Source: Isurus oxyrinchus (lineage: Eukaryota). From it: 64,000 bases of DNA. The stretch covers positions 109,740,001 to 109,804,000 of the forward strand of contig JANJGN010000007.1 in the NCBI GenBank assembly GCA_026770705.1, read 5' to 3'. The notes beneath the pieces are model-generated. The model did no database searches, was not told the DNA's origin, and saw only the letters and a program-made list of their open reading frames with translations. The translations under genes and the position numbers were made by a program. Positions 24,478 to 59,779 of the stretch are shown here, piece by piece. Position 1 is the first letter of the stretch, and the number at the start of each line of letters is the position of its first letter.

Positions 24478-24521
24478 GTATTAATAGAAATTCCGTGGAA
24501 GCAGCTCACAGAGAACAGCCG
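24478..24521 (+). CDS. Receptor gene 1, exon 5: short cytoplasmic exon (GINRNSVEAAHREQP)
   Basis: tttgttccattttag|GT ... CCG|GTAAGA; phase 1 in, phase 0 out, open. Confidence 0.75.
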
Positions 24522-25839: not shown

Positions 25840-25976
25840 AATAAACAAAGAGGCGGAGATAACTGATTTACGCCGCTCCGCAGCTTGCTGATTCAAAGAA
25901 AACATCAAAATCTAAACAGAAAGACGAACGCGCCACATATGCAGAAGTAAACCTGTCAAAGAAAGAAAGAAGCTGA
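25840..25976 (+). CDS. Receptor gene 1, terminal exon: reads NKQRGGDN* (stop 25864-25866); a shifted frame encodes LIYAAP...ATYAEV to stop at 25974-25976
   Basis: Acceptor tttgactttcacag|; two SIRP-like tyrosine motifs lie in a frame blocked by TAA at 25860-25862. Confidence 0.75.
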
Positions 25977-35614: not shown

Positions 35615-36570
35615 TTTTTATTTGTTCACGGGAAATGGCAAGGCCAGCATTAATTATTCATCCCTAATTGCCCTTGAGAAGATGAGCTGATTCTTGAACC
35701 ACTGCAGTCCATTTGGTGCAAGCATGCTGGTGAGGTGGGGGGGCGGTTTACAGGGGATGTGGTGTGGTGGTGGTGATTGTCAGGGGTGGTGGTGGGGGTG
35801 CGTTCCAGGATATTGACCCGGGGCGGTGAAGGGATGGTGCTGTACCAGCTCAGGGTGCTGTGCAACTGAGAAAGGAATGTGCAGGTCTGATATTCCCAAG
35901 CATTTACTGCCCTTGTCTTCTAGGTGGTCGAGATGTCAGATTGGAAATGGGTGATGCTATCTAAGGTGCCTTGGTCAGTTGCCGCAGTGCATTGTGCAGA
36001 TGCTGTTGCCGTTGTGGGCCAGCGGAGGAGGAAGTGCATGTTTAAGGTGATGGAAGGGGTGCCGATCAAGCAGACTGCTTTGTCCTGGATAGTGTCCAGC
36101 TTCTTGAACGTGTTGAAGTCACTCTTATCCAGGAAAGTGAAGGATATGAATATTCCGTCACACGCTTGATATGTACCATGTAGATAATGGGCAGGATTTG
36201 GAGTGTTAGGTGGTGTGTTACTTGACACATAATTCCCAGCCTCTGGCCTGCCCTTGAAGCCAAGGCATTTATAAGGCTGGCCCAATTAAGCTTATGGTCA
36301 ATAGCAACACCAGGATTTTTAGGGGGTGGTGGTGTAGACTGGTGGAGGCTTTCAGTGCCAAAAATGCCTTGAACGTCAAGAATGATGGGCTGATTGTCTC
36401 TTGTTGGAAATGCCATTACCTGGCATGAATTGTGGTGTGACTGTCACTTGCCTCTTATCAACCACAGCTTAAAGGTTTTCCAAATCTTACTGCATATGGA
36501 CACGGATTGCTTCAGTATCTGAGGAGTTGTGAATGGTGCAGAACAAGGTGCAATTAGCAGCAAAGCTCCC
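35615..36570 (-). mobile_element. LINE 3' fragment
   Basis: GVAIDHKLNWASLINALASRAGQRLGI, KKLDTIQDKAVCLIG. Confidence 0.88.
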
Positions 36571-36693
36571 CACTTTACACGTGATGTCACCAACTTCTGA
36601 CATATTTCTCGACTGAGCTTTTGTAAACCCACACAATCTGAACTATCGACTGTCATTTGCTGACTTGTATTCATTCAACATGCATAGTCTGAA

Positions 36694-38692
36694 ATGTTTC
36701 TATGTATACCGACCCTGGCGATTGCACACACCAGTACAGATGTTTACTTTAGTATTTACATTCTCTTTCTCTTGGTTGTTGGGGATTCCACAGTCGGACA
36801 AATACCCTCCACACAAAGTTCCGCTCAAACATCACCTGATAGGACATTTTCCCGCTCTTTCTAGAGGATTCAGATGTAGAGGTTCACTGATGGCGACACG
36901 ATAACCAGGAAGACGGAGAAGTGAAAAGAGACAATATAATATTCCCCAAAAAATGGCGGGAGACGCCCCCTATCTATTGAATGTGAGGTTCAGAGAATCT
37001 ATCCGCTATTACTGCCTGGCCTACTGTCGAGAAGGATAGCTGGGAATAGAACCGGCTCGGAGATCCTTGCGCCTGTTGAGTCGCAGGTTCTGGATGTTGC
37101 AGGAGTCAATCGTGCAACAGGTACTTGGTAAAATACCCTGGAGATAGTGAAGAGAGCGAGAATGGGACACCTGCCTAGGTTTTTGTATTTATAGTGCCAG
37201 TATCAAATCAACCTAGGGATAAGATTATCGATTGACGGAGCAATTATTTTGCAAACGTTTTTCTTTAATGTAGCCAGTTATTTTGCTTTTTCTTTAAGTT
37301 TACAGTTTCGTTACTGTGGATACATAATCCACGATGTTCAGATGCTAAATGAACAAAAAAGTCAATGAGACAAACTGGATTACTTTTTCAGAACCACCCA
37401 GCACACTAAGGAAATCGCTTCCTGCACTGTAACATGACCCAATGACCAGAAAAGCTATGATTCGGTAATCAAATGACTCAGATTTAAGAAAAAATGGCAA
37501 AAGAACGACAGGGCAGAGGAATAGAAAGTATTTTACAAAGTAAGTTGCTAGCATCTGGAGTTCCCTAGCTAGACGCAGCGCTAGTAATTTTCAGGAGGGA
37601 ATTGGATAGATGCTTTAAAAGAAAAAAAAAACAGGACTTTTGAGAAAAAGCAGAGGAGAGGAACGAATTGTATAGCTATTTCAAAGAGCCAATCCGGGCA
37701 CGACAGGCTGAATGGCCTCCCCCAATGCCCTGTAACTCAGTAATTCTAACATATATAACACCTTTCTTTCTCTATTCAAGAATCCATGTAATATCAAGTT
37801 CATGTTAAATACTATTTGAAAACGAAAAAAATAAAGACGCACCAATGAAACTCGACGTTAAATTACCTATCCTGAACGTGTCTCTAAATTACAGGCTACA
37901 GAAATAAAATAATAATGATCACTTTATACTCCAAAAAATATTTCAATAGCAAAATCATTTTTTTCTCCCAATTTTGCCCATTAATCACAGAATCTAATTG
38001 ATTGAGTCTAAATTCTGTCTATCAACTTCACCGGCTCTCCTGTGCAAAACAGCTCAGTTTTACCTTGAAGATCTCAATGTGACTCGTTATTAAGAACAGG
38101 GCGAAAGTTGGAACCGGGACCAATAGTACTAAGCAGCGAATAACACTGCAAATGTATGGACCTTCCAGCACTTTAAAATACACCGTATCAACCAGCAGTG
38201 AAGCTATATACAGCTGCCAAGTGCTTCATCTTTCTCTTCAGACTCCAGCATTGTCGAATAGAAATGTGAAGGTGCGGTCTTGTTTTCAGGAACCCTTGCT
38301 CGTTTGTCGTTTTTCTTAATGCAAGGATGATTGTGAATACGTGTTAGCATTTGACGCTGTTGCATTCTCACGTTGCATTGAGGATTCATTGGCCCGATTG
38401 TAAATTGCTTCACGAGTTGGCATTTTTTGAATATCTTTAAAACATACTTGCACTTGTACTCACTGTTCATTAAACGATTCGTTCTGAACTCCTTTATCGG
38501 TGCGTTTTTTTGTTGGTGCTGGTTTTATTGAAATTAACGCCAGTCGGCCTGACATCTCTACCATTCTTTGTTTGCAGGCGCTGCTAACGTCGTTGCCCTC
38601 TATTTGACGTCCGGCCATTAGTGTGTATATTGGTAATTATGACGCTAATTGGCTTCGTTAAGAATTATTTGAAGCTTGAGATACTTCCAAAG
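36694..38692 (+). pseudogene. VJ-C1 receptor paralogue 2 (pseudogene): leader 36694-36733, V 36776-37075, C1 about 37972-38271, TM 38578-38692
   Basis: MFLCIPTLAIAHT; FPLFLEDSDVEVH*WR, NVRFRESIRYYC, GNRTGSEIL; LLCKTAQFYLEDL, YSCQVLHLSLQTPA; RPLVCILVIMTLIGFV. Stops, frameshifts and dead splice sites. Confidence 0.85.
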
Positions 38693-39109
38693 GTGAGACA
38701 CCCCCTTTATTACGAGAACGCAGTGTCACTTTGCAGATCATATTTTTGCAATAAATAGGAGATATAAATGAATGCTCTTTGATCGTGGACATTTGGATCG
38801 CAATTCATACGTTGAAAGATTTTATCCTGGGAAATAGCTGATTCACAGTTTCGACGATTATTACTCCAGACTAGCAGTATCTTGCGAGAGAAAAGACCTC
38901 ACCTGTCCACTCTGGAGTAGCAATGTTGCGAAGATATTTGGGGAGTTACCATGTTGTGGGGAAATGGCGGAAGTGTTGTAAAAGAACCAATATAAGATTT
39001 CACTAGAAGAGGCAGGAAGACGAAATATTTCTCAGTTATTTAAAAGAGAGTAAAATGCCAGCCGTCTCGATAACAGGATAATGATTTCTTTAATTATTGT
39101 TTAAAAAAA

Positions 39110-39556
39110 GGAAAGATTTACATTAGTATCCTACACGGTAACCAGACTTTCCAGAGCCCTTTGCAGTCAACTTTGAAGAATGGTCATTGTTTTGATTAGG
39201 AAGTGTCACTGCAAACGTACGCACAGCAAATCTCCAAATTAGCAACGTGATTATGATCAGATATCCTGTTTTTTTTTGGTGATTTAGTGATTGATTTGGT
39301 TAGGACACTGGAGATAACGCCTCTACTTTCTTCAAAATACTACCATGTGATCTTTGACATTCACCCAAGGGGGCAGATGAAACCTAGGTTCAACATTGCA
39401 TCGGGATGACATCAAGTCACAATGCAGCACTCGTTCAGTGCAACACTGGAATATCAATCTAGATTGGTGGTGCTCAAGTCCTGGAGTGGGACTTGAACAC
39501 GCAACCTTCTCACGCAGTTTTCAGAGTGCCAACAACTGAAAAATTGCTGACACTCA
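39110..39556 (-). mobile_element. Deu-domain (SacSINE1/AmnSINE-like) SINE
   Basis: Reverse complement: tRNA-like head gagtgtcagc...gttcaagtcccactcc, then cagtgttgcactga...gtgctgcattg and aagatcacatggtagtatttt core; related copies at about 10.4, 11.9, 21.3 and 48.1 kb. Confidence 0.65.
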
Positions 39557-40744
39557 AATTAATATAAATATGAAAGATATGGGAAAACTGAGGGGAGAGC
39601 ATATCGAGGTCTTTGAAATTATGAAAGGTTTTGATTTGGGAGATCCAATGAAAATGTGTCCGCTTTTGATCGAACCCAAAACTGGAGGCCAGAAATAATC
39701 AGTCACAAATGAATCCAATAGGTAATTCATGAGAAGATTCTACAGCCAATAAGTGGTAAGAAGGTGGAGCACGGGAGAGAAAGCGGAAATTGAGGAGAAT
39801 AGATTAGATACATTTAAACGGGAACTTTCAAATGAATTTGAAGCAGAACGAAATGTACAGATGGGAGTACAAGAGGAGGGCTGGGAGGAGCATAAATGTT
39901 AGCATATATAAGTTGAGCCCAATAGCCTTTTCCTGTGCTGTAGACTATTTAAACATTCTTGTTCTGTTATGACAGGCATTGCTGTGTACTGGCAACCTGT
40001 ATTGGACTCTTAGATGCTATACCTACAGAATATTTGCCTTCTTTCAGTATCTATACCTTGCCCATTTCTGGTCCTGATAACTTACATTTTCAGCCTCCAT
40101 TTCTTGCTGTTGTCTTTTATGTTCAGCCTTTGACATTACCTCTCTGACTTGAACTCTTTTCTAACATTATAGACATTTCTCCAGCAGTTGGAGGCTGACA
40201 AAAGAGGATCTTGCTTTGCCTGAATAGATAAATCTAAACAGTGCGCAGCACAACCAAGTTTTATCTATTCACAACAATCTCAAAACAGAACTTGGGTAAA
40301 ATTTTAGTGCAACATAAATGCACCAACAATCCTCTAAAGTTGTTCGAGTCAAGTCAGCAAAACAGTCCAATAGGCTCTCTTCCTGTAAGAATGCGTGTAT
40401 ATAACATATAAATAACATGCTGGTATGCAGGCTAATGCAATAGAATGAATTACCATTTGTGATGGTATTTAGAAATTCTTATATAAATATAACATTTATA
40501 TTTAATAAAATAAAGGTATATATCTTATGTAGATCGTTGATCTCACATGGAATTGCTTTTAAAGAAGATTATGAAAAATATTGTTTTTCCATTTTTCCAA
40601 TGTGGGTATCAGTGTGAGAGAGCAGAGGGACAGCACTGAAAGGGTAGGTTAGATGAAAGATTCCTGTGATAAAAAAGGCTTTTTTTTTTGTATAAATCAT
40701 TACTATCCAGTGACCTGTTTCTCTACTTTTCCCTGTGTACTTTA

Positions 40745-43200
40745 AGAAGGTTCATGAAAGGCAATCAGGACAGTTTGCTGAAAAAGCATAGTAATGAACC
40801 AGCTCCAGAACAAGCTATTTTAGATCTAGTATTGTGTAATAGGACAGAGTTAATCAGTAACTTCATGGTAAAGGGTCCTCTCGCAAAGTGTGATCTTATA
40901 GAATTCCATATTGAGTTTGAAAGTAATGGGATCACACCCAGTGGGTTTGCAGGTCTTTAAACAAAGCCAATTGTGCAGGTACGAGTGGCTAGTTAGCTAA
41001 AGTAGAGTGGACATCAGTTTAAAAGATATGATACTAGATTAGCAATGGTAATCATTTAAAAAAATATTCCATTGTTTTCAACAAATATAAATTCGCTTGA
41101 GAAACAAAATCTCCACTAGAAAAGGGGTTGAAAAGTAACTAGAGAAGTTAAGAATAGTATTAGATTAAAAGAAAAGCCTTACGGTGTTGCCAGGTTTGCG
41201 GAGATAAACAGAGATTGATGGAGAGAGAAAGTAAAATATGAAAGTAAACAAGTAACAAATATGATTTAAGCACATGAAAAGGAAGAGATTAGCAAAAACA
41301 AACATGGCTCCCTTACAGACAGTGATAGGAGACATTATAATTAAGAAGAAAAAAATTAGCAGACACATCAATTTGTATATGCCTTCTCAGTAGAAGACAC
41401 AAGAGCATACCAGAAATAATGGGGAATGGTGGGACTGATGAGTGTGAGGAATTTGAAAGCCTCCACCCTTTGTAAATTAGCCAGCAGCATGGGGTGTCTA
41501 TAGTTCCCTGATGTTTTCTTCATGGCAATGCCATGACTAGTCAGAGTCAACTTGCCAGCCAATCAGCACCCCTTTTCTCCTGTAGTATACTTTGCTGTGA
41601 TCGTTTGAAATTTGGCATTCTTGCATTTGTTCTGATGAGTACAAAATGAAAGGTTATGGCAACATGTCTCTGTTTTCAGCAAAATTCAATCTCTGTACTA
41701 CGAAGAATCTGTAATTAATATTAGTGAAGAGAAAGTCTTGGAAAATTAATGGGATGAATTGCTGACAGATCCCATGGAGCTGTTGGCCTACACACTACAC
41801 TTTAAAATAGGTGACTGCAGAGATAGTGGATGCATTGGTTTTGATCTTCAAGAATTCCCTAGTGCATTCTCTGTGGATTAAAAACTAGCAAATGTAATCC
41901 CACTGTTCCAGAAATGAGAAGGAAAGAAAATAGGGAATTATAGACATGTTAGCCTGACATCAAATTTATTATTAGGGACATTGTAACAGAGTACTTGGAA
42001 AATCATTATATTATTTGGCAGAATCAGCATGGTTTTATGAAAGGGAAATCATTTAGGTAAATCTATTGAAGTATTTTTGAGGATGTAACTGAAAGGGTAA
42101 ACGAGGGAGAACCAGTATTTATAGTATATTTGGCTTTTTAGAAGTCATTCAATCAGTTGCCACACAAGAGGTCATTACACAAAATTAGGGGGTGGGTTTG
42201 GAAATACTATTATAACAGGGATTTAGGACTGGTTGCTGAACAAAAAAGTGACAAGGATTAATTGGGCCATTTTCAGATTAGCAGGGTGCAATTTATGGAG
42301 TGCAACAAGGGTCAGTGCTTGAGCCTCAGCCATTTACAATCTATTTCCGCTACTCGGATAGGAGAACCAAGTATAACATATCCAGGTTTGTTTGGGACAG
42401 AAAGCTAGATGAATTGATAAATTGTGAGGACAATGCGAAGAGGCAACAAAGGAATATAGATCAGTTACATGATTGCACAAAAACATAGCAGATGGTGCAC
42501 AATAAGTTATCCACGTTTGTAGGAAGAATTAAAAAGCAGAATACTTTTTCGAAAAGCGATAAAACTAGTAAATATTAGGATTCAAAGGAATTTTGTGTTT
42601 TTGTACATGAATCGCTGAAAATTAAGATGCGGGTACAGCAGACAATTAGGAAGGAAAGTTGTATGTTAGAATATATTGCAAGGGAATTTCAATTGTAAGC
42701 TGCTTTGCTGCAATTGTGGTGAGCTTTACTGAGACCACATCTGGAGTAATCTGTACAGTTTTGGTCTCCTAACCTAAGGCAAGATATACTTGTCGTCGAG
42801 GAGGTGCAATAAAAGTTCAATAGATTGATTCCTGGAATGAGAGGTCTGTTCTTTGATCAGAGATTGAGTATACTGGGTCTATATTCTCTGAAGTTTGGAA
42901 GAATCACAGGTGACTTCATTGAAACTAATAAGATTATTTTGTTTGACAAGCTTGATGCTGAGAGGTTGTTTTTGCTTACGTGAGAATCAGAGCTTGGAAT
43001 ATTGACTCGGAGTTAAAGGCTAGTCCTTTAGTACTGGGAAGAGGAGAAAATGCTTTGCTCAAATAGTTGTGACTCTTGAGAACTTTCTATCCCAGAGGGC
43101 TGTAGATCCCCAATCATTGAGTATATTCAAGGCTAAGATTGATAGATTTTTAAGCACTAAGCGAATCAAAGAACATGGGGTAAGGTAGGAAAGTGGAACT
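40745..43200 (+). mobile_element. Degenerate CR1 LINE, with a short element inserted at about 41460-41710
   Basis: AILDLVLCN, cagcatggttttatgaaagggaaatc (QHGFMKGKS), QQGSVLEPQPFTIY. Confidence 0.88.
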
Positions 43201-43340
43201 GAGCTGAAGAAGCGTCATACAGACTCGAAACGTTAGCTCTGTTTCTCTCTCCACAGATGCTGCCAGATCTGCTGAGTTTTTCCAGCATTTTCTGTTTTTT
43301 GTTTCAGATTTCTAGCATCTGCAGCATTTTGCTTTCATCC
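43201..43340 (+). mobile_element. Penelope-type 3' tail with canonical hammerhead core
   Basis: CTGAAGA-AGCGTC ATAC AGACTC-GAAA-CGTT followed by ctctgtttctctctccacagatgctgccag...tttccagc tail. Confidence 0.65.
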
Positions 43341-44776
43341 AGTGTTCTTATGTTGACCAAGAGTAAAACTGTTTAAGGATGCTGTCGTTCCTTGTAGACA
43401 GTATGGACAAATTCTATAGTGTTAAGAGGATCCATCGTGCACCAGACATAAAAATATTCAGGTGCTACAAAATAATTAAAGAATGACATAAAAAAAATGA
43501 TGAAAGTCAACTTCAGCTAGGGGCAAATGAGGTGGCTGCTGAACGTCTGTCCACTTTTCATCCTATCCGATTTATCATCTGGTGCGTGATAAGTGGTTAA
43601 TCTACTACCCATTTTGCGCCAACACCGAAGTTGAATTTCAAGCCAGAATTGAAGGAGCACAGGGATCTCAGAGGGTTGTTGGGCTGGAGGAGCTTGCAAC
43701 GATAGAGCAAAGTAACGGACGGAGAGATGAGATTTTTTATCTCGAAGGATAACCAGATCAACGAAAAATATCAACATCAGGCAATAGAGCAGTTTCCCAA
43801 CCCGAATACTGAGTCCCTGCATAACACGTCTCAACTAAGATGTAAAACTCAAGCAAAGAAACTCCCTCAAAAAGGCTTCATGACGACTCGTAAGCCTTGC
43901 ATAGCACATGTTAGAAGCGAAGTAAAGCACCCTCAAATGTCATCAACATTCCAATCATCATAGAACATTCGTTCTGAGCAACGTTTCTAATTCCCCCCAC
44001 AGAATCAGCCCTGCAACATTTCTGAATGAAACTGGCAAAAACTGCTTTCACAAGGCAAAGGAGCATTTCATTCTGCAAGTAAGAGTGCCCAATTTCAAAC
44101 AATAACTGGACAGCTATCTACCTCATTGCGTTCCCCTTAGTGTTCCTTCAGGTAACAGTTTGGCATTCAATTTCAAATTTATAGTTTCAGTTAATCTGAA
44201 CCTTGTGGCTCAGCTGAGACCAGACCTGAATAACAACTTCACCAGTGTTAAAGTCTGAATTAAAAACTATCGTTGTCATTTAGAAGTAGTATTAATCAAT
44301 GGTGAGACAAGTGGAACAACAAGGTTTCTATGAGACCAGAACAGCAACACGGAACCAACAGAATTTTGTCTGGACTGTCATTAGCCATCAATTAACGTGG
44401 GAGCATAGGAATTTCTAGACAAAAAATGGCCAAGTTCCATTTAGTCTCTCTTCTACCATGTTGATTCAGTATCCTAGGTTTAAACAGAGTTCGCGCATTG
44501 GTTTAAGATTAAGAGTTAGCTTGATAGAGTTTATGTTAGTTTGTTAGGGTTCACGGTTGCTGTCAGGAGTTGGGCTAGTGGTTGGAGTTAAAGATTTGGG
44601 GTTAGAAACCGCTATTTACATGGTTATAAAGATGTAGACAGGGTAATTCAAGGCACATCGCTACGGAATGTCACCAGCCTCTGACACATTTCTTCCCTGG
44701 CCTTGTGTAAACTAACATATCCGAACTACCTGAAGTCCTTGGTTTAGTTGCGTTCATTCGACTTCCACCATCTGGC

Positions 44777-47475
44777 ATGCTTCCATGTATATTGATCCTG
44801 GGGATGGCACACACAGGTACTTTAATAGTTACTAGGTAATGATAAGAGCAATATCTGTACAGTGATATTATTTGATGAGTTTATTCATCTCCATTTATGG
44901 TTATTATAGTTTATCAATCTTTTTATCCCCGTTTCTACCTTTATTTATATATATAATGAGATGTTTATTTTTATGTTTATATTGGCTGTCTGATAGTTGT
45001 TGCGGATTCCAAAATCGTCCAAATCCCGCCACTCACAGTTGCACTCAAAGGGACAAACATTACTCTCAACTGCATATTCCCACTCTTTCAAGAGTAATCA
45101 GAGGTAACGGTTCACTGGTGGCGACATGGTGGAAACGGGTTCTTGGGCCACGTAGTAACGACCAAGGAATAGTATAAGCTTTTGAGAAAAGGGGGAGCCG
45201 TCCTCCATGTTTTGAATGTGAGCTTCAAAGATTCTGGCCGCTATTACTGTTCCGTGTACTGTGGGGGAAGAATGTTTGGGAATGGAACCGGCTCAGAGCT
45301 CCTTGTGTCTGGTGAGTCCCCGTTCCAATCGGTACAGGTGTTAGTTGTGCAATGAGTATTTGCTAAAATAGCAAAGAGGTAGAGAAGGGTGCCGGAATGG
45401 GATGCAGGTTTGGGGTTTGTATCCAGTGCCAGCATCAAGACACTTTGGAGGTGACATCGTCGATTTACGGGGAAGCGTTTCTGCCTGTGTTCTGGGCAAT
45501 ACTGTTTCCCTGAAGAGTACAAGAAAGAAAATCTTCCTCCTTCAGTGACAATGGGTAGAACCTGACTTTGCGGCTCTTTGCGGCGCTGTCCAGAACAGTT
45601 GACAGCAAGTTGGTGATTCCAACTTCAATCGGAATAAATGTCGGGGCAGATGTAAAAGGGGCTGCCCGCTGACACTAGTCCGGTTTCCATTACCACACAA
45701 AGTCAATGTGTGCTAGATACGGCCTGGTATCGGTATGGAAGATCCCCTCTCGTTGTTTTTAGTCAAATATTTGCTCAAAGTTCCTACATGTTTACTGGAA
45801 GCATCAAACATAACGAATTTCTGTTGTGGTGAAAGTAGGACTTGTCACTCCAATGTTGTTCAAAATTGACATGCAGTTTTGTTCTCGAGGTATTAAGTCT
45901 TTTGGAGCAACTTTATGATTTTATTAGAAGCAAACCCACAAAGGACACACTTACAATGCCTCTGCACATAGTGACAACAGAAACCCTTCATTGCGGTTCC
46001 TCGCAACACGATACGGGTGATTTTCCCATTCATCTCCTAGAACCCCGGCTTCCCTTGGATTCCTGCGGCTCTTTGGCGGAATTAAGGCGAACCAGGGAGA
46101 TCATGATGTTTGGAAACAAATGAACTATATTAAAATATTGAACTTAATAAGCCTCTGACGGGAATACCTAAAAAGGTGAAATATCCTTTCAGATAGAGTG
46201 TTGCAAGCAGAATCTATGATTTTTTTTTTAGAAGGGGAACCGGATGAATATGTCAATCTGACTAGCTGGATTGCTGTGTCAGAGAGGGGCCAGAACACTG
46301 AGCCAAATGGATTCCTGCTGCATTGTAAAGCTTTATGAGTCTATAACCATAAAACCATGATTCGATAACCAGGAGGCGCAGATTTAAGCTAATTAACAAA
46401 AGAGTACCGGGGGAAAGTGGGAGAAAGAGATTTGCACGGCAGGTCCTATGATGTGCAAGTCACAACCTGATAGCAAGCCGAATAAATAGTAATTTTCAAG
46501 AGGGTGTTGCGTATATACTTAAAATGGAAACTTTTGGCAGGGCTATGGATAGCCTCCTGACCTCTGTGACGCTCCCATATATATCACTTCTTTCTCCGTT
46601 AAGGGCTCCATGTAATTTCTAGCTTCATGTTTGCTACTATTTGAAAATGTAGGAATTAAAAACGTTCCAATGAAGCACAGATTTAAACCTACCCGTCCTA
46701 AATTCGTATTATCAACAGAAATACAGTAATCATTAATATTTCAATCAATAAATAATGTTCTTTTTCTCCTAAGTTCGGCCAACGCCTCTGACGATCGGCT
46801 TGCTTGAGTCTAAATTCCGTCCGTCGACTGCCCTGACTCTTCAGTGTAACACGGCTAAGTTTTACCCCGAAGATCTCAGTTTGACTTGGTATCCGAACGA
46901 TGCGAAAATTGTAACTGGGATCAATACTACGAAACAGCGAACAGCGGTGGGAGTGTATGAGGTGTTCAGCACTTTAAATCATGCGGGGCCATCCCGTAGC
47001 GCAGCTGTACATAGCTGTCAAGTGTCTCATCTTTCCCTTCAGACTCCCGCCAAAATCAATTACAGCTTTGATGGTACCGCTGATTCATTCTTTTCAGAAA
47101 GGTTCGCTCAGAAAACTTTTATCGTTTTACCTAAGACACGGACACGTGTAAGCATTTGATGCCTCTGCATTCGTTTATTGCATTGAGGATTCATTGTTCA
47201 GGCTGTGAATTGTTTCATTTGTGGACATCTTATTTTGAATATTTTAAAACATATATTAAATTCCCTTTACAGGATTACATGATCCTGTCTATCTCTGGGT
47301 TTTCTTGCTCGTCGAATTGATATTAATGCATGTTGACCTTATACCGCCGTTACTCATTTGCAGGCGATAACGACGTTAAACAATTGTTGGTGTCTCGACA
47401 TTTATTGGGTATATTGATAATAATGGTGCTTATGATCATTGTTGGGAATTAATTTAAGCTGAGGTACTGTCAAAT
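44777..47475 (+). pseudogene. VJ-C1 receptor paralogue 3 (pseudogene): leader 44777-44816, V 44997-45311, C1 46774-47073, TM from 47364
   Basis: MLPCILILGMAHT|; V GTNITLNCIFPLFQE*SEVTVHWW..DSGRYYCSVYCGGRMFGNGTGSELLVS with stops at 45095 and 45170; open C1 LQCNTAKFYPEDLSLTW..HSCQVSHLSLQTP; TM LLVSRHLLGILIIMVLMIIVGN* (stop 47450). Confidence 0.9.
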
Positions 47476-48139
47476 GAAAGACGCACCATTATTACCAGAG
47501 CGCATCAGCGCTTTACAAACCGCGCTGTAGGTCAGTGTTCACCTATAGGAGGTGAAAATGAATAGTCTTTGAAGTTGGATATTCGGACTACAATTTGCAC
47601 ATTGAAAGTAATAGGATGTTATCGCAGAGCAATAGTGGGCATAGAGCTCCCTCGATTATACCTTCAGGCCAACAAAGCCTCTCAGAGGACAACGATTCTC
47701 TCTGGTTACCCTTGGTTAGCAACGTTGTAATGATATTTGGATAGTTTCTATGCTCCAGGGAAATAGAGCACACGGTTTTAAAGGAAGAGGTATGCCTTGG
47801 TATCGTTTAAGACGGGGATAAGGAGGACTTTCTTCTCTCAAAGGGTAGATGCTCTTTATAATTCTGTTCCACAAAGGCCAGCGGAGTTAAGGCCACAATC
47901 AAATCACCATGACCTTACTAGATGGAGGAACAAGCTCGATGGGCCAAATGGCCTACTCCTATTCCTATTTCTTATAACCTTATTTTCTTACAAGTGATTT
48001 AAAATAAAGCATTTAAGATTTCACCAGATATAGCAAACAGAGGAATATATGGGGTACCAGTTATTAAATGACCGCAAAAATCTAATCACTGGTTATGAGG
48101 CCAATTATTTCTTTCAAAACCATTTCAAAAAGAAAAAAT

Positions 48140-48792: not shown

Positions 48793-51202
48793 GTAAGCTT
48801 TTCAGAACCACATTCTACTTTAAGGCCGGTGTGCCGAAAACATGTGTCCCCCAAGGAGAATAGAATCAATCTCCCAGATGTCTGGTTATTGATAAACTCA
48901 GAGTAGATTACATTGGTTCCAATAGTTGGGTTGGAGACTGATTTAACCATGTTTACGGATAAAATGAAGTTTGCTGATCACCCTGCCATTGTTACAGACT
49001 GGAGATAACCTGAGAAACTAGTTAAAGGTTGAAACAATTGTATATTTATGGTTAAATATAACAATAAGTAATAGTTGTGTTGTCAAAGGCTATATTTAGG
49101 GAGTGGGAAGATCTCATATTCCATATTGGACTATACTGAAAGGGCTGTTTTCTGCAAGTGGGGCAGTATGATCTAATTTTGATGTTCTTGTCTAGGGAGG
49201 GTGAAATCAGCCATGTCAGACGCTGAATGCCTGTACGGTTGTCACTCCCATGGAAAGACTTCATGTGTGGAGCTCAGGAAGTGTTTCACTGTGATGTTCC
49301 CTCCAACTGAGAGCCAAATCCTGCTCACACTTAGAGATAGAAATTAGCTTTGTACAATATCAAGTTTTGGGCCAAATCGAATCGGTGGCTCGTTTTTGCT
49401 CTGTCTGATTTGCTTTTTTCATTGAAGAAAATGGAAAAACATATCAGACGGAATTCAAAAACAATTCGTTATTGCCAGTACTGCATTGTTGCCCGGGATA
49501 AACATAGACCTCTTACCAATTAGGCTTAGCCTTGAACGTTCGTCAGTTGAGTGAGATAACAGAAAGTGTACTACCAACATAGAAGGGAAGTTTATCAGCA
49601 CGTATGGAAGAGGACGGGTAAAATTGGTGGGGTTGGGAGTTTGTAATAATCATTCAAAGTAATCAATAAATCAATCCACTGCCAGTATTGAATGTAGTAC
49701 TTTTTTAGCAAGTCCTGCAGCAAACAACTGTCCAGAACATGACAAATTGTAAGGAAGATTTCACTGTCTCCAAGAAAATTGTGAAACAGGTATTCTGTGC
49801 AGGGTATGACTCTCAAGCCCCAATATGTGATGGGGGTAGATTTTGACTTGTTGAGATAGCGGAGAATGGGTGATAGAGAATTGGCAGTGCCTTTTACATA
49901 TCTCCCAAGTTTTAGTTCAGTGGGAGTGGGAACAAAAATCAATATGATTACGAGGAATGTAATGCGGGCTGCCACCTCACTGTCTTCCATCTTACACTGT
50001 CTCCAAAAGTCAAGATTTGGTCCCATGCTCCCTATAGTATTACATACCCAGATACAAGAATTATACTGTCAGCGTCCACTGGCTCCAGCACAACCATTAC
50101 AATTTTGATTTCATCCATACACGCTCATTTGTTTTTTTTTGCTGGGTTTTGCAGCCGAAATTCTGATTAAACCCACAGAAATATATATTTAATAATGATA
50201 GGATCCAACGAAAATGTCCGTCGTAATTGAATTGATTTTTTAATAAAGCAAAGCGGGGTAGTTCTTGTAAAACGCTGACAGTTTGTTTACAAACTATATG
50301 TCTCCTCATTGAAGTCAATCTGGTGTACGATAGGTCCGATGTGCAATAACACTGGCAGCTGCCTTGTTGTCAGTCGTTTTGCAATGTAGCACAAAGTCAA
50401 TATCAGCCTCATTTTCTCCTCAAAAATGAGTTTACTATGACTAGCATTGGCCTATTTAACAAAAATGAACTTCTAATGATATAATTGGAGACACCAGAAA
50501 CTTGGAGCACGGTTCTGTTTAAATTACCACTTGTAGTATACCATGTATTGACAGTATTACTTTCATCATGAAGGCTAGATCTTCAGTTTACCACCTAGGG
50601 GTAAAACCGATATTGCGAATCAGCCGTTGGTAATAGAAACCGTTTGGGAAGCATGTGGAAAATCTAACCCACATCGCGTACTGCCAGCTTTTTGTTGGAA
50701 TGGGCGATTTCTGTTTGTACCATCACAGAATCTATTTAATAAAAGATTTTCGTGCAATCTATCTAAACAAAGTGATTATTTCAATTAGGCCTTTTGTATC
50801 AGCGGTAAGATTATAGGAAATAAAAATGTTTTTCTTTAAAATTCAGCAGTGTACAGGCTCCATTTTACCCTTGGACGCTGTTTTGAGCTGGGTGATATTG
50901 AATTAGTCACGCCGGATTTTCATCTCCAGTGAAGTAAATGAAAATTGGGACACCCAATTGAATATCGCCCATCTTACACCCTGTCCAAAGTTAAAACTAC
51001 CCCAGGCATTCTTTAATTTGATTTTTTATTAATATTCCTTAGGCCACTAGTTTCATTAATAGGAAGACTAATAGATTCTCAGGGCACTCTCCTCTCAGGG
51101 CCCGAACTCTTTGATGACTTTATCATATGATACTTCTTTTTTTTAGAAAAATAATAAAATTGGTCTTCATTGGGGGACATGTTTAGTGACTTCCCATGTT
51201 AC

Positions 51203-51290
51203 CTGGGCTGTCGCTCACATGAAAGGTCCGAATAAAGGAGCGCTGAATTCGCCCTACTGGTCCTCCTCATCTGAGCAGTTGTAGCAGTTT
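51203..51290 (-). pseudogene. ITIM exon remnant (LLYSDL at 51223-51240), NCR3-like gene copy B
   Basis: Paralogue of 1607-1694; donor CAG|GTAAC retained. Confidence 0.5.
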
Positions 51291-52908
51291 CCGAAGATAT
51301 ATGTCAAATACTTGGATGTGGAGCAGAAACCACGTCCCCTCACGCGCACACTCAACTTCCCATTCCAGATTGCAATCTCCACACTGAGGGCATTAAGGCG
51401 CTCCAAGCTGTGCGCAACGGACAACTCACATCAAATTAAATGCAACAATTTTCCACCAACTATACCAGGAAGTTCCCCAAAATGTTTTCATAATTCAATA
51501 ATCAAAAGTTACTTGACCATTAAAAATACACTTTGATATGAAGTCCAATACATTTGCAGGCATGCCTGATGAAAGAGATTGATTACCGGAGTTTACACTG
51601 TATTTTATGTAGTGTGACCTATGCCTCCATTGCGTCTTAAGGACATGCTATTTCGGCGCAGGGTTCTCCCGAAATCTCGCAATAACTGTGCCAAAAGATT
51701 GACGGATGCCCTACCATTTAGAGCATTTCTACAAGGATATGCAAATTTACAGCTACGGCAGGGGTTGACCATCGCACAGCAAAATTCAAACCCCAGCAGC
51801 ACAATTGTATACTTTCAGCTCAGCTGATAAGTTGTGCAGATCTGCAGCTAATCATTTGAGCAGGGGTCTGCCGATCAACCACGTAACATTTTCGGGATCC
51901 ATTAAATCCTGAGAATCATCGCAAAATTATCGTTAATGGGGGTGTCTGCATCTTAAATGGTTTCTGCAGGCATGCCATAAGAACAGTCTCTGGGTGCCGA
52001 TTGATCATTCCATTAGATCATGGCTGATCAGCACCTCAATACCAATTACCTGCCTAGCTCTGTATCCCTTGATATCGGTAACTAACACAAATCCGTCATC
52101 TCGGTCTTGAAGCCTCCGATTGTACAAGCATCCACAGCCTTTTCGGGAGCAGCATCAAGATTCTTAAGAGTTTTTGTGTGAAAAAACATGTTTCCTGGTT
52201 TCATTCCCGAATGCCTGGCTTAAATTTTAAAATGATATTGCTGTCTTTTGAGTTTTAACTTATGTAAGAAGCAAAGATGATCGTGGGAGCTCGAGTCGAA
52301 CTGAAGCGTTAACTCCGTTCTTAGGGAATCTGTAGCACTGCCGAGCTGACTGGCGATAGCGACATGGGACTATGCTCAAAACAAAAACAGAATTACCTGG
52401 AAAAACTCAGCAGGTCTGGCAGCATCGGCGGAGAAGAAAAGAGTTGACGTTTCAAGTCCTCGTGACCCTTCGACAGAACTTGAGATCGAGTCCAGGAAAG
52501 AGTTGAAATATAAGCTGATTTAAGGTGTGTGTGTGTGTGTGTGTGTGGTGGGGGGGGGGGGGGGGGGGGGGTGCGGAGAGAGAGAGAGAGAGAGAGAGAA
52601 GTGGAGGGGGTGGTGTGGTTGTAGGGACAAACAAGCAGTGATAGAAGCATATCATCAAAAGGTGTCAACAACAATAGCACAAAAGAACATATAGGTGTTA
52701 AAGTTGGTGATATTATCTAAACGAATGTGCTAATTAAGAATGGATGGGAGGGCACTCAAGGTATAGCTCTAGTGGGAGTGGGGAGAGCATAAAGGATTTT
52801 AAGATATTTAAAAATAATGGAAATAGGTGGGAAAAGAAAAATCTATATAATCTATTGGAAAAAAAAGGAAGGGGGAAACAGAAACGGGGTGGGGATGGGG
52901 GAGGGAGC

Positions 52909-54659
52909 TCACGACCTAAAGTTGTTGAATTCAATATTCAGTCCAGAAGGCTGTAAAGTGCCTAGTCGAAAGATGAGGTGTTGTTCCTCCAGTTTGCGTT
53001 GGGCTTCACTAGAACAATGCAGCAAGCCAAGGACAGACATGTGGGCAAGAGAGCAGGGTGAAGTGTTAAAATGGCAAGTGACAGGGAGGTTTGGGTCATT
53101 CTTGCGGACAGACCGCAGATGTTCTGCAAAGCGGTCGCCCAGTTTACGTTTGGTCTCTCCAATGTAGAGGAGACCACATTGGGAGCAACAAATGCAGTAG
53201 ACTAAGTTGGGGGAAATGCAAGTGAAATGCTGCTTCACTTGAAAGGACTATTTGGGCCCTTGGACGGTGAGGAGAGAGGAAATGAAGGGGCAGGTATTGC
53301 ATCTTTTGCGTGGGCATGGGGTGGTGCCATAGGAGGGGATTGAGGAGTACGGGGTGATGGAGGAGTGGACCAGGGTGTCCCGGAGGGAGCGATCCCTACG
53401 GAATGCCGACAGGGGGGTGGTGAAGGGAAGATGTGTTTGGTGGTGGCATCATGCTGGAGTTGGCGGAAATGGCATAGGATGATCCTTTGAATGCGGAGGC
53501 TGGTGGGGTGATAAGTGAGGACAAGAGGGACCCTATCATGTTTCTGGGAGGGAGGAGAAGGCATGAGGGCGGATGCACGGGAGATGGGCCGGACACGGTT
53601 GAGGGCCCTGTCAATGACCGTGGGCGGAAAACCTCGGTTAAGGAAGAAGGAGGAAATGTCAGAGGAACGGTTTTTGAAGGTGGCATCATCGGAAGAGATG
53701 CGACGCAGGCAAAGGAACTGAGAGAATGGGATGGAGTCCTTAGAGGAAGCGGGGTGTAAGGAGCTGTAGTTGAGGTAGCTGTGGGAGTCGGTGGGTTTGT
53801 AATGGATATTGGTGGACAGTCTATCACCAGAGATTGAGACAGAGAGGTCATGGAAGGGAAGGGAAGTGTCAGAGATGGACCACGTGAAACTGATGGAGGG
53901 GTGGATATTGGAAGCAAAATTAATTATTTTTTCCAAGTCCCGACGAGAGCATGAAGCGGCACCGAAGTAATCATCGATGTACCGGTGAAAGAGTTGTGGA
54001 AGGGGGCCGGAGTAGGACTGGAACAAGGAATGTTCCACATAGACCATAAAGAGACAGGCATAGCTGGGGCCCATACGGGTAGCCATAGCCACACCTTTTA
54101 TTTGGAGGAAGTGAGAGGAGTTGAAGGAGAAATTGTTCAGTGTGAGAACAAGTTCAGCCAGACGGAGGAGAGTAGTGGTGGATGGGGATTGTTCGGGCCT
54201 CTGTTCGAGGAAGAAGCTAAGGGCCCTCAGACCATCCCGGTAGGGCATGGAGGTGTAGAGGGATTGGACGTCCATGGTGAAGAGGAAGCGGTTGGGGCCA
54301 GGGAACTGGAATTTGTTGATATGACGTAAGGTGTCAGAGGAATCACGGATGTAGGTGGGAAGGGACTGGACAAGTGGAGAGAGAAGGGAGTCAAGATAAC
54401 GAGAAATTAGTTCTGTGGGGCAGAAGCAAGCTGAGATGATCAGTCTACCGGGGCAGTTCTGTTTGTGGATATTGGGTAGGAGATAGAAGCGGGCCATCTG
54501 AGGTTGTGAGACTATCAGTTTGGAAGCTGTGGCAGGAAGATCCCCAGAGGAGATGAGGTCAGTGACAGTCCTGGAAACAATGGCTTGATGTTCAGTGGTG
54601 GGGTCATGGTCCAGGGAGAGGTAGGAGGAAGTGTCTGCGAGTTGACGCTCAGCCTCCAT
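52909..54659 (-). pseudogene. Penelope RT plus GIY-YIG endonuclease ORF, 5'-truncated and frameshifted near 53415
   Basis: RT motifs TMDVQSLYT, GVAMATRMGPSYA, RYIDD; GIY-YIG NLVYCICCSQCGLLYIGET..R..EH; upstream IKPADKG at about 54700. Confidence 0.93.
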
Positions 54660-55142
54660 GAGGTAGAGGTCAGTGCACCAAGAGCAACAGGAGCACCACC
54701 CTTGTCAGCGGGTTTGATGACAATGTCAGGGTTGGACCTGAGAGAATGGAGTGCAGTAAGTTCAGAGAGTGAAAGGTTAGAATGGGTGGGAGGGGCCCAT
54801 CTCCCGCGCATCTGCCCAAACGCCTTCTCCTCCTTCCCAGAAACATGATAGGGTGCCCCTTGTCCTCACTTATCACCCCACCAGCCTCCGCATTCAAAGG
54901 ATCATCCTCCGTCATTTCCGCCAACACCAGCATGATGCCACCACCAAACACATCTTCCCTTCACCCCCTCTATCGGCATTCCATAGGGATCGCTCCCTCC
55001 GGGACACCCTCGTCCACTCCTCCATCACCCCCTACTCCTCAACCCCCTCCTTGGCACCACCCCATGCCCACGCAAAAGATGCAACACCTGCCCCTTCACT
55101 TCCTCTCTCCTCACCATCCAAGGGCCCAAACACTCCTTTCAA

Positions 55143-55472
55143 GTGAAGCAGCATTTCACTTGCATTTCCCCCAACTTAGTCTACTGCATTTGTTGCTCCC
55201 AATATGGTCTCCTCTACATTGGAGAGACCAAACGTACACTGGGCGACCGCTTTGCAGAACATCTGCGGTCTGTCCACAAGAATGACCCAAACCTCCATGT
55301 CACTTGCCATTTTAACATTCCACCCTGCTCTCTTGCCCACATGTCTGTCCTTGGCTTGCTGCATTGTTCCAGTGAAGCCCAACGCAAACTGGAGGAACAA
55401 CACCTCATCTTCCGACTAGGCACTTTACAGCCTTCCGGACTGAATATTGAATTCAACAACTTTAGGTCGTGA
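55143..55472 (+). pseudogene. Second (inverted) copy of the Penelope GIY-YIG domain
   Basis: Differs at 6 of 109 aa from 52909-53238. Confidence 0.9.
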
Positions 55473-55892
55473 GCTCCCTCCCCCATCCCCACCCCGTTTC
55501 TGTTTCCCCCTTCCTTTTTTTTCCAATAGATTATATAGATTTTTCTTTTTCCACCTATTTCCATTATTTTTAAATATCTTAAAATCCTTTATGCTCTCCC
55601 CACCCCCACTAGAGCTATACCTTGAGCGCCCTACCATCCATTCTTAATTAGCACATTCGTTTAGATAATATCACCAACTTTAACACCTATGTGTTCTTTT
55701 GTTCTATTGTTGTTGACATCTTTTGATGATCTGCTTCTATCACTGCTTGTTTGTCCCTACAACCACACGCCCTCCCCCTCCACTTCTCTCTCTCTCTCCC
55801 TCTCCGCCCCCCCCCCCCCCACCCCCCCCCCCCCCCCCCCGAACACACCTTAAACCAGCTTATATTTCAACTCTTTCCTGGACTCGAACTCA

Positions 55893-55931
55893 AGTTCTGT
55901 CGAAGGGTCACGAGGACTCGAAACATCAACT
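55893..55931 (+). ncRNA. Minimal hammerhead-like motif (CUGUCGA core) in Penelope terminus; mirror copy at 52441-52482 on - strand
   Basis: AGTT-CTGTCGA-A-GGGTC ACGAG GACTC-GAAA-CATC-AACT; the mirror copy retains GAAACGTC. Confidence 0.5.
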
Positions 55932-56464
55932 CTTTTCTTCTCCGCTGATGCTCCCAGACCTGCTGAGTTTTTCCAGGTAATTCTGTTTTTCTTTTGGATT
56001 TGCAGCATCCGCAGTTTTTTTTGTTTTTATGGACTATGCTCAATACTGAGGAAGAATATCATAAATGTTAGAAGACATTAATAGTCTTGCAGAATGCCTG
56101 TCCAATTGGTAATTGAATTTCAGTATAGTTGAGTGCGACTTAGTGTATTTCAGTAGCAAGAATAAGGGGATCTTATACTGCTTGCATAGTAAGAGCTTAA
56201 ATGGGGTAGAGTGACAAAAGGCTCTAGGGCTATAAACCACAAATCACGAGATGTATTACTGGAGGCTAAGGCAAGCATTGGAGTTAATATTTCAAGGAAC
56301 AGAATTAAAAGGCAGAGTGGTAATGTCAAACTCCGATGAAAAAGGGAGAAAATGCTGGGAAACATCTCAGCAAGTTGGTATCATCTGTGGAGGGAGAAAC
56401 AGGCATAACTTTTCATGTCCAATATGAAACTTCTGAAGAATAGTTTGTTAAATTTGTAATTTTT

Positions 56465-58200
56465 TTAATTCATTTACAGGATGTGGGCTTTGCTGGCTGG
56501 GCCAGCACTTATTGCCCATCTCTAGTTGCCATTGAGAAGGTAATGCTGAGCTGCCTTCTTGAGCCGCTGCAGTCCATGTGGTGTAGGTACACCGACAGTG
56601 CTGTTAGGAAGGGAGTTTCATGATTTTGACCTAGCGACAATGAAGGAACCGCAATATATTTCAAAGTCAGAATGGCAAGTGACTTGATGGGGAACTTCCA
56701 GGTGGCGGTGTTCCCATCTATCTGCTGCCCTTGTCCTCCTAGGTGGTAGTGGTCGTGGTTTGGAAGGTGCTGTCTGAGGACCCTTGGTGAATTCTTGCAG
56801 TGCATCTTGTAGATGGTACACACTGCTGCTACTCTGCGTCGGTGGTGGAGGGAGTGAATATTTGTGCATGTAGTGCTAATCAAGTGGACTGCTTTGTTTA
56901 GGATGGTGCCCACCTTCTTCAGTGTTGTAGGAGCTGCACTCACCCAGGCAATTAGGGAATATTCCATCAGATTCCTGTCCTGTGCCTTGTAGATGGTGGA
57001 CAGTCTTTGGAGAGTCAGGAGGTGAGTTATTCATCACACGATTCCTAGCCTCTGACCTGCTCTTGTAGCCACAGTATTTATATGCCAAGTCCAGTTCAGT
57101 TTCTGATCAATCGTAACCCCCAGAATGTTGATAGTGGGGAATTCAATGATGGTAATGTCATTGAACACCATGGGGCGATGGTTGGATTTTCTCTTGTTAG
57201 AGATGGTCATTGCCTGACACTTGTGAGGCACGAAAGTTACTTGCCACTTGTCAGCTCAAGCCTGGATATTGTCCAGGTCTCGCTGCATTTAGACATGGAC
57301 TGCTTCACTATTTCAGGAGCCACGAATGGTGCAGAACATTGTGCAATGATCAGCGAACACCCCGACTTCTGACCTTATGATGGAAGGAAGGGCATTGATG
57401 AAGCAGCTGAAGATGGCTGGGCCAAGGACACTACCCTGAGGAAGTCCTGCAGTGATGTCCTGGAGCTGAGATGACTGACCTCCAACAACCACAACCGTCT
57501 TCCTTTGTGCTAAGCATGACTCCAACCAGCGGAGAGTAACCCCCCCCCCCCACCCCCCGGCCCAACCCCACTGATTCCCATTGACTCCAGTTTTGCTTGG
57601 GCTCCTTGATGCCACACACAGAGTCAAATCGGACTTGATGTCAAGGGCAGCCACATTCACCTCACCTGCTTCAATGAGCCAGCCATATAAATACTGTGGC
57701 AATGATAGCAGGTCAGAGGCTGGGGAATCTACGGAGAGTAACTCACCTCCTGACTCCCCAAAGCCTGCCCACCGCCTACAAGGCACAAGTCAGGAGCATG
57801 ATGGAATACTCTCCATTTGCCAGGAGGAGTGCAAGTTCAACACACTCAAGAAGCTTGGCACCAACCATGACAAAGCAGACCACTTAATTTGTACCCCAAG
57901 CACCACCATCAACATAACTTCCTCCACCACCGACAGTGGCAGCAGTGCGTACCGTCTACAATATGCATTGCAGCAACTCACCAAAGCTCCTTTGACAGCA
58001 CCTTTCAAATCCACAACTTCTACAACCTCGAAGGTCAGGGGCAGCAGATGTATGGGAGCACCGCCACCTGCTTATTCCCCTCTAAGACACACACCATCCT
58101 AACTTGGAACTATATCATCATCTCTTCACTGTCGCTGGATCAAAATCCTTCCTAACAACACAGCGGATGTGCATACACCACATGGACTGCAGTAGTTCAA
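56465..58200. mobile_element. Head-to-head LINE fragments (minus 56465-57670, plus 57675-58200), paralogue of 3216-4923
   Basis: GLPQGSVLGPAIFSCFIN, FADHCT, ILGVTIDQKLNW. Confidence 0.9.
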
Positions 58201-59779
58201 GAGAGCTAATCGGTATTTATGAAATTATGAAAGGGTTTGATAGGATAGTCCTGGAGAAAATTCTGAGGCAGTGCAAAACTAGAGGGCAGAAACATAAGAA
58301 AGCTATGAAAAAAATCTAATAGGAAATTCAAGAACTTAACAGTTAAAGAATTGTAAGAATGTAAATGGTATTAGAAGAAGTAGTTGTGGTGAATCTCATG
58401 GAGACATTGAAAGGGAAAGCTTGATAAGTATATGAGGGAGAAAGTAATAGAAAGATATGCTGATATGGATGATGAAGCGAGAAAGGATAGGACTCAGGGG
58501 AGCAAGAATGTCAGTGGAGAGCAGTTTTGTGCTGTCTACTGTGTATACTTCTATGCAATGTGAAACAGAACATAGAGGAAACATTTAGTGGCTTGATCAA
58601 CATCAACCAAGTGAAACGATAGGTTAATGGTTCAGTCATAATCCCTCATTCGGACTGGAAAAATAAAGTGGATGATGCAAATAACAAGTTATATTTTTTT
58701 AACCCCTTTAAAGTAGAGAAACATGTTTCCCAAAGTCTAACCAAAAAGAAAAATGCACCCAGTAAAAGAAAGATGCATTTTATTTTATTCCTTCACAGAG
58801 TATGTACATCGCCAGCTGGACCAATATTTATTGCTCATTCCTAATTGTCCTAGAGTACGTCGTGGTGAGCCACCTTCTTGAATCGCTGCAGTCCATGTGA
58901 TATATGTACACTCACAGTGCTGTTAGGCAAGAGGAGCCAAATGTTTGATCAAAGAGGCGGCTATCAAAGACAATTCTAATTGACGAGCAGGAATACAGAA
59001 GCAGAGAAGTTTAGAGAGAGACTTTTAGAGCATGGAGTCTGGGCAACAGTGGACAAAGAGATGCATAATCTATTACATTCCACAGATAAGGAAATGAAGA
59101 GATAGGGGAGTTGTTAGCTGGTGAGGTTACTGAGATTGGGAAGGCCAAGGTCATGTAGGGCTTTAAATTAGGATGGGAATTAAAAATTTCCGGTAGTGGG
59201 GAGGTGAGATCCTATATAGGTCAGCCAGGTTATGGATGAGGGGGATACAGAGTTTGGTGTGGGATAGGATATGGGGAGCAGAGTCTTCGATGAGCAGAAG
59301 TAATTTGCATGTCAAGGTTGGTGAGGCAGAGTGGGGAAGGGGAGATAGCTAAGACTACATTCGTGTAATTGGATCAATCGTGACCACACGTAGTGGTGTA
59401 AGTGGGTTGGCAACTTCATTTTCATTTTTCGGGATCTTTATTTGCATTAACTTCCATTGATCAATAAAGTAGGGACAACTGTTTCAGCTGCAAATTGTTA
59501 AGATAGGGTGAAGACGGAAGATATTACAAAGGTAGAGATAGGCACTGTGTACAGTGAAGTGGGTCTGGGGTTACCATCACAGTTACCATTATTTACCATC
59601 ATCATTTGTGAATTTTATTCGAGTTACTTTGGTTCTATGGTAGGGCAGAAAAGTGACTGGATAGATTAAAACAGCGTTGTAGACAAGATTGGCATAGAAC
59701 AAAGGGAGGAGTGAGGCAAAAGTTGATATCCTGTGTGAGCAATGTATTTCCATTCAAATATTTCACCATTCACAAACTA

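Follow-up and report, generated by a model that had tools for sequence, protein, structure and literature searches.

Two broken receptor genes with an arginine (Arg) in the transmembrane (TM) segment lie in a shark genome beside a gene with an uncharged one, and the question raised by this arrangement is whether they are the dead activating partners of an inhibitory receptor. We address it for a window of 64,000 nucleotides from Isurus oxyrinchus (G000:C7:109740001-109804000; the window is this whole stretch), in which three loci on the plus strand have a V-set exon, a C1-set exon and a TM exon: gene 1 (17067-25975), g2 (36694-38696) and g3 (44777-47530). A sequence-only reading of the window had taken g2 and g3 for activating-type paralogues that died next to inhibitory gene 1, and their loss for a sign of fast birth-and-death evolution in a paired-receptor family. 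Our analysis, which extended to the 4.98-Gb genome, makes a different history probable, namely that g2 and g3 are pseudogenes of an old subfamily with an Arg-TM and a short tail (here type B), within a cluster that likely works as paired receptors and that reaches its Arg forms by two routes.

The genome searches, each scoring the best 150 candidates, gave at least 58 C1 and at least 47 V matches, every one on contig C7, where they fall into blocks at 96.4-97.6 Mb and 108.7-110.0 Mb with a single match at 114.8 Mb. In 1.404 Mb of sequence chosen around the matches, which covers part of the two blocks, we count at least 63 C1 loci, a lower bound given these limits on candidates and area, and some TM or tail exons may sit beyond the sequence examined. 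Plain lesions break 32 of the 63 loci, and a J-type GxG motif lies within the V exon in 42 of 49 V matches (VJ exons). The evidence supports a family of predicted V-C1 loci on one chromosome that do not rearrange and that evolve through duplication and loss. Its named close protein relatives are all from sharks, rays and a chimaera, and the C7 cluster contains both inhibitory-type and activating-type members.

The two types are told apart by a single TM position and by the tail. In the alignment of the family's TM exons a single column is occupied mostly by Gly or Arg; its codon is GGA in gene 1, A868, A910 and the sibling of gene 1 located 53 kb downstream, CGA in A830, A989 and g3, and CGG in g2. 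We classified 60 database proteins with a TM, taken from the best 150 of 1245 HMMER matches and including related rows that are not independent as well as some incomplete models; proteins longer than 500 residues, with C1 identity below 35% or without a hydrophobic segment were excluded, and P0012, an isoform of P0015, was left out of the tail count. A tail of at least 60 residues with a motif of the immunoreceptor tyrosine-based inhibitory (ITIM) or switch (ITSM) type occurs in 1 of 17 Arg proteins versus 25 of 43 non-Arg proteins (Fisher p 1.7e-4), and any Tyr motif in the tail in 3 of 17 versus 26 of 43 (p 0.004). Among genes of this genome with open V and C1 exons, a tail exon follows 10 of 17 uncharged TMs versus one of seven Arg TMs, that one being frameshifted (gene T, described below, was scored open from its spliced model). 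The comparison of predicted proteins thereby establishes two builds, one with a Gly-TM and a multi-exon ITIM/ITSM tail, the other short-tailed and with Arg in place of that Gly, and since Arg accompanies the short tail the family appears to be built like paired receptors. Arg-TM members with ITIM tails, which the sequence-only reading had named as the case against itself, thus amount to one of the 17 database proteins, and the paired-receptor reading is not refuted. Several sequences nevertheless weigh against so clean a division: P0029 combines Arg with an 81-residue tail containing LAYASL, gene T and P0006 have V-x-Y-x-x-L directly behind the TM, and 17 of the 43 uncharged database proteins, many of them possibly incomplete models, also lack a Tyr motif.

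Two further observations concern the tails. A subfamily at C7:109636361, 109670593, 109312398 and 114794930 has a Cys-rich TM end (WWIY..C motif), with no ITIM exon found, and its database relatives have tails of 73-85 residues without Tyr motifs; it is a possible third signalling type. In A868 (G000:C7:109871540-109871560) the ITIM tail looks intact and the C1 donor is AT in place of GT.

The homology of g2 and g3 proposed from the sequence holds throughout. Their leader, V, C1 and TM exons are 65-75% identical in nucleotides, the flanks align too, and similarity extends about 170 bases 5' of the ATG (36526..36693 in g2), with a local score of 94 against a best of 48 in 500 shuffles. Both genes are dead, as had been claimed. 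In g2 the leader exon (36694..36733) is followed by an intron of about 42 bases, shortened by a deletion common to all five g2-type copies that could be aligned with the leader; the VJ exon (36776..37075) has lost its acceptor AG and donor GT, contains frameshifts and has a stop replacing the first Cys codon; and the C1 exon (37972..38271, start approximate) has lost its acceptor and the conserved Trp and contains two frameshifts, so that three splice sites are gone. In g3 all splice sites are kept and there are three in-frame stops, as read from the assembly and compared with a g3 copy upstream. Its leader exon (44777..44816, GT donor) is intact, the VJ exon (44997..45311; motif FGNGTGS) has AG and GT sites and stops at 45095 (TAA) and 45170 (TAG), the C1 exon (46774..47073; AG/GT intact) is open with a Pfam C1-set match at E 1.8e-08, and the TM/terminal exon (47364..47530) has a TAA at 47450, the end of the TM, with no ITIM exon found behind it.

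Arg near the N-terminus of the TM was likewise borne out, as CGA at 47396-47398 in g3 and as CGG at 38612-38614 in the TM/terminal exon of g2 (38578..38696), the codon occupying one column in eight of the nine type-B TM exons aligned. Pairwise alignment of the g2 exon is ambiguous and had left room for a frame artefact, which the multi-copy alignment of type-B TM exons rules out: all seven g2-type TM exons have a common 2-base insertion upstream of the Arg column, and the frame read as RPLVCILV behind it is the ancestral one. The Arg of g3 falls within the best hydrophobic window of 19-21 residues, as its residue 4-5. An in-frame TGA ends the exon in five of seven g2-type copies, about 10 codons behind the TM, which also disposes of the GT at 38694 as a splice donor to a tail exon, and an ITIM exon sought behind every type-B copy was found behind none. 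From the Arg codons, the in-frame TGA and the missing ITIM exon together, we read type B as a subfamily originally built with an Arg-TM and a short predicted tail.

Whether type B ever reached the membrane deserves scrutiny, as its orthologue in the horn shark (P0013/P0014, clade support 100) is annotated without any TM, which weighs against this reconstruction. Both isoforms stop six residues past C1, the insertion in the g2-type copies would likewise yield a TM-less product, and type B could on these grounds have been mainly a secreted V-C1 decoy whose TM exon was already vestigial. A search for an intact type-B gene with a TM brought one match by word search, itself TM-less, and none by HMMER on cluster representatives (best 150 of 1245 matches). 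The g2-type insertion is, however, accompanied by nine other common fatal lesions, and the upstream g3 copy (G000:C7:109735167-109737875, L040) has a TM exon that is still open, includes the Arg behind an AG acceptor and reaches a hydrophobicity of 2.6. We therefore hold a secreted origin to be unlikely and retain the Arg-TM, short-tail build for type B. The leader and V exons of the upstream copy are open as well, and its C1 exon is broken solely by a 2-base insertion and a Trp-to-Gly change, defects that could be recent, polymorphic or errors of the assembly.

The idea that g2 and g3 were short-lived activating partners of gene 1, with deaths that reveal a faster turnover of activating members, draws on the facts that all 11 type-B copies found are broken, that they alternate with gene-1-type genes (the nine g2-type copies lie between them) and that in the horn shark type B adjoins the gene-1 orthologue, by accession order. 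In its strict form it is contradicted by the ectodomains, which match gene 1 in 36% (V) and 41% (C1) of residues and so lack the close similarity that marks a pair. Type B instead forms an old clade of its own with the horn shark gene (support 100), and in an 88-row tree no uncharged member groups with it. The deaths also count for less than they seem. Ten lesions are common to the g2-type copies, each present in all copies that keep the part concerned (5/5 to 8/8), as polarised by reference to the horn shark protein and to the in-frame copies of g3, and the ratio of nonsynonymous to synonymous change (w) in the g2 lineage is 0.57-1.04, within the neutral range in all eight controlled comparisons, whether within the lineage or with the g3 type. 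Common lesions and neutral w indicate that the lineage died once and was then copied, apparently as a passenger of tandem duplications. For g3 and its upstream copy w is 0.58 (p 0.24, neutral range) and no lesion is common to the two, which would have broken separately after the tandem duplication of about 50 kb described below. Outside type B, V and C1 are open in 7 of 9 Arg genes versus 17 of 32 uncharged genes, so the C7 cluster gives no sign that activating-type genes die faster, and gene 1 itself has a tail without Tyr. We consider the partnership improbable; of the birth-and-death picture, duplication, loss and the two builds stand, and the pairing of g2 and g3 with gene 1 and the rapid activating turnover find no support. 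The case is a warning that counts of dead activating-type copies overstate turnover where pseudogenes ride on tandem duplications.

Gene 1 had been described as having an uncharged TM and a Tyr tail, and it has the former without the latter. Behind the leader exon (17067..17121), the open VJ exon (17322..17627; Pfam V-set E 2.3e-09) and the open C1 exon (19959..20255), the TM exon (23595..23702) has Gly (GGA, 23624-23626) where activating-type genes have Arg, and a first tail exon follows at 24478..24521. A deletion with its junction at 25719..25721 has then removed 1.23 kb, including two tail exons that the sibling keeps, and the last exon (25840..25975) has lost 4 bases near 25863, which puts both Tyr motifs out of frame and creates a stop at 25864-25866; relative to the sibling, the ITIM has Leu changed to Pro. 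Spliced at AG/GT sites, gene 1 encodes 278 residues with no Tyr behind the TM, because of these two deletions, and its reading as a working inhibitory gene is not supported. The intact inhibitory-type gene is by its gene model the sibling, with 383 residues, all AG/GT sites intact and the motifs LIYAAL and STYAEV, and the loss of the Tyr tail of gene 1 would postdate the duplication of about 50 kb. At the 4-base site, contigs from short-read run X1 have a depth of 62, of which 31.7 with the 4 bases, and these depths fit a gene 1 without and paralogues with them; X1 is possibly the assembled sample and hence no independent animal. In run X2 (half read), a point against this loss, and in a related species, solely sequence retaining the 4 bases (25862) was seen. 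In the presumed RNA run X21, coverage within 23400-26200 is limited to repeats and weighs neither way on expression.

If g2 and g3 are not its partners, gene 1 has a better candidate in gene T (G000:C7:109364922-109360500, minus strand, L063), located 393 kb upstream, which encodes 270 residues with all AG/GT sites, an Arg-TM and a short tail. The V exons (109364359-109364664, minus, in gene T) are 90% and the C1 exons 86% identical in protein to those of gene 1, and the two genes group in the tree with support of 99. By sequence the true twin of gene 1 is accordingly gene T, and T with gene 1 or its sibling has the very similar ectodomains that g2 and g3 do not have. Gene T is under purifying selection (w 0.32 versus a neutral median of 0.75, p 0.003), and with A989 it answers the search for intact Arg-TM members that the sequence-only reading had suggested along with the calculation of w.

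The likeness of this pair is uneven along the gene. Intron 1 of gene T is about 70% identical to that of gene 1, as distant as that of A868, and the V exon has 7 synonymous differences among 64 sites (Fisher p 0.0016 against the intron), whereas between A868 and gene 1, which differ at 22 of 65, exon and intron do not part in this way (p 0.54). The Arg-TM exon type of T recurs in catshark and sevengill shark on ectodomains of the T/gene 1 subfamily, and yet the V+C1 tree places T beside gene 1 and unites the Arg gene of the catshark with its ITIM gene. The V exon of gene T has thus likely been refreshed through gene conversion from an inhibitory gene, as far as sequence comparison can tell, and the same pattern of V-exon conversion between inverted paired genes is described for CEACAM (PMC5112662; papers are cited by PMC number for the parts consulted). 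The C1 exon by itself, without a significant conversion signal (p 0.08), is a point against this.

A second way to an Arg gene is suggested by A989 (G000:C7:109989481-109994850, L059-L060), a 264-residue model with intact splice sites and CGA at the column, whose first tail exon contains a stop. The stop recurs at this codon in A938, and both genes are followed by decayed ITIM exons, which would make A989 an intact intermediate in the conversion of an inhibitory gene into an Arg gene. Against a functional Arg here stands the best hydrophobic window of 19-21 residues in A989, which leaves the Arg outside; the claim that the Arg lies within the membrane span thus holds for g3, the upstream g3 copy and T, and fails for A989. 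On the 88-row tree the Arg label changes 18 times, 13 of them forced by starred branches, with a shuffled mean of 21.5. The weight of that count is reduced by the tree itself (FastTree, 205 columns, unrooted) and by the mixing of point changes with exon exchange; isoforms, four distant tetrapod or lobe-finned matches and the frameshifted g2-type pseudogenes were left out of it. Two further Arg genes at C7:109230609 and 109562284 (minus) have an otherwise inhibitory-type TM, and their nearest tree neighbours are uncharged genes (109041 and 109403), further candidate pairs.

In the mechanism that we propose, the Gly-TM build with its ITIM tail would recruit SH2 phosphatases and inhibit, as ITIMs are known to recruit SHP-1/2 (PMC12975943), and the Arg build would likely pair through its Arg with the TM Asp of an FcR-gamma- or CD3-zeta-type dimer bearing immunoreceptor tyrosine-based activation motifs (ITAMs), and activate. 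Arg-TM KIR-like receptors and Xenopus XFLs do associate with FcR-gamma (PMC2413239). Arg genes might arise by the two routes seen above: an old Arg-TM exon stays in place and conversion likely renews the V exon with sequence from an inhibitory gene, as in T relative to gene 1 and its sibling, or a change of GGA to CGA together with a stop in the first tail exon turns an inhibitory gene into the Arg build (A989). A precedent for the latter is activating Ly49H, which derived from an inhibitory gene (PMC4701786). The ligand could, as a guess, be a self marker mimicked by pathogens, the usual explanation of such receptor pairs (PMC5112662). Candidate adaptors exist, as the genome has three PF11628 matches, one zeta-like on C18 and two FcR-gamma-like on small contigs. 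These labels reflect sequence likeness and are presumptive. The two FcR-gamma-like exons (C1723:88553 and C1648:27629) are near-identical and represent a duplicate gene or two haplotypes. A predicted complex of the gene T TM with the FcR-gamma-like dimer scored 0.07 (mark 0.34) and weighs neither way.

As an alternative to adaptor pairing, the Arg/short-tail forms might not signal at all, being membrane-anchored decoys or ligands like B7-H6 (NCR3LG1), with the Arg marking the outer edge of the membrane span. None of g2, g3 and T has the NxxR motif that characterises FcR-gamma-binding TMs (PMC2413239), their Asn being either 5-7 residues N-terminal of the Arg or lacking, which weighs against our mechanism, and the position of the Arg in A989 relative to its best window also suits an edge marker. 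B7-H6 shares the V + C1 ectodomain, several relatives are automatically named NCR3LG1-like, and a turtle NCR3LG1-like match reaches 29%. The shark family differs from it in having ITIM tails and Arg-TM forms, and C7 has no myogenic-factor gene, the group that includes MYOD1, used here as the synteny marker for B7-H6 (PF01586 matches on C9, C10 and C20 alone). A single Arg column recurring across scattered clades and coupled with tail loss weighs against an edge marker, as does the Arg inside the best window in g3, the upstream g3 copy and T, and the ITIM-bearing relatives, together with SIRP-alpha as the nearest protein by features (0.96), point to receptors. A non-signalling role thus seems to us rather unlikely, and we continue with paired receptors of two builds.

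SIRP is the known system that comes closest, with a V-set and C1-set ectodomain and with ITIM forms and charged-TM short-tail forms in one cluster (PMC12975943, PMC10729450). SIRP-alpha is also the best non-titin match in PDB (2wng, E 1.4e-10), and coelacanth and lungfish SIRP-like proteins are among the distant matches. The shark genes differ in having one C1 exon per model, where SIRP has one V-set and two C1-set domains (PMC12975943), and in the N-terminal TM column, which is Arg in 15-17 of 60 proteins and Lys in none, whereas activating SIRP uses a TM Lys for DAP12 (PMC10729450). The shark Arg moreover lies near the outer TM end, and the cluster has its 63 or more loci. Matches to PF08059 (SEP-domain) and PF15290 (syntaphilin) fall on C12 and C5 alone, not on C7. 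NSFL1C and SNPH served as markers of the SIRP neighbourhood, a choice that a literature check did not confirm.

With the FcR-gamma-coupled KIR-like receptors (LILRA2, PIR-A, NKp46, GPVI, OSCAR, Fc-alpha-R) and Xenopus XFL TM1 (PMC2413239) the family has in common the N-terminal TM Arg, the short tail, uncharged ITIM counterparts and a large cluster; it differs in the missing NxxR and in its VJ + C1 ectodomain in place of FcR/KIR-type domains. The paired CEACAMs (Xenopus, human CEACAM1/3; PMC5112662) resemble it in V exons that are alike between genes of opposite signal and orientation with divergent introns, but belong to another family and activate through an ITAM-like tail, where the shark genes likely use the TM Arg; the 7 synonymous differences remaining in the V exon of gene T suggest a conversion event older than in CEACAMs. 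NKp30, PRARP and UrIg/UrIg2 (PMC10751288, PMC12227049) also encode V and a J-type motif together in one exon, with a C1-set exon next, yet are linked to MHC or antigen-receptor genes, and UrIg is antibody-like with several C1 domains. The passages searched of these two papers contain no ITIM match and no mention of an ITIM/Arg V-C1 cluster, and the searched parts of PMC8455134, PMC13262535 and PMC10729450, like theirs, do not describe the present one. The wider literature search found no account of the C7 V-C1 cluster, with supplements and some likely relevant earlier work outside it, and the term undescribed is provisional.

The flagged pseudogenes are ordinary, and the interest for comparative immunology lies in the surrounding family. 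A bolder reading, to which we give less than an even chance while taking it seriously, is that cartilaginous fishes possess their own large undescribed paired-receptor complex, common to chimaera, rays and sharks and following the plan of antigen-receptor chains (VJ-C1-TM). In it a GGA-to-CGA switch of the TM codon would have been thrown many times to turn inhibitory receptors into FcR-gamma-coupled activating ones, with V exons re-matched by conversion; as a shark counterpart of KIR, LILR and SIRP it would represent the most ancient arms race of this kind recorded so far. The innate immunity of cartilaginous fishes has been called overlooked in the whale shark genome paper (PMC8455134). Among its about 60 loci the cluster has members of both builds, with T and the sibling as a matched pair in intact form and A989 as an intermediate of conversion that is likewise intact, and these three genes are test objects for the origin of activating from inhibitory receptors and for the ITAM adaptor used by the earliest jawed vertebrates.

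The rest of the window includes part of the tandem duplication. A second copy of window positions 1-10758, about 91% identical, occupies 49606..64000 on the plus strand and is part of the tandem unit of about 50 kb, composed of a g3-type, a gene-1-type and a g2-type locus, over which 42.6 kb can be aligned at 89-97% identity. Positions 52377-56032 are a 3.6-kb insertion missing from the duplicate unit, with inverted arms of 1.2 kb that are 94% identical. Its minus strand has an open frame of 489 codons (53238-54704) that gives no Pfam match and appears to resemble a retroelement reverse transcriptase.

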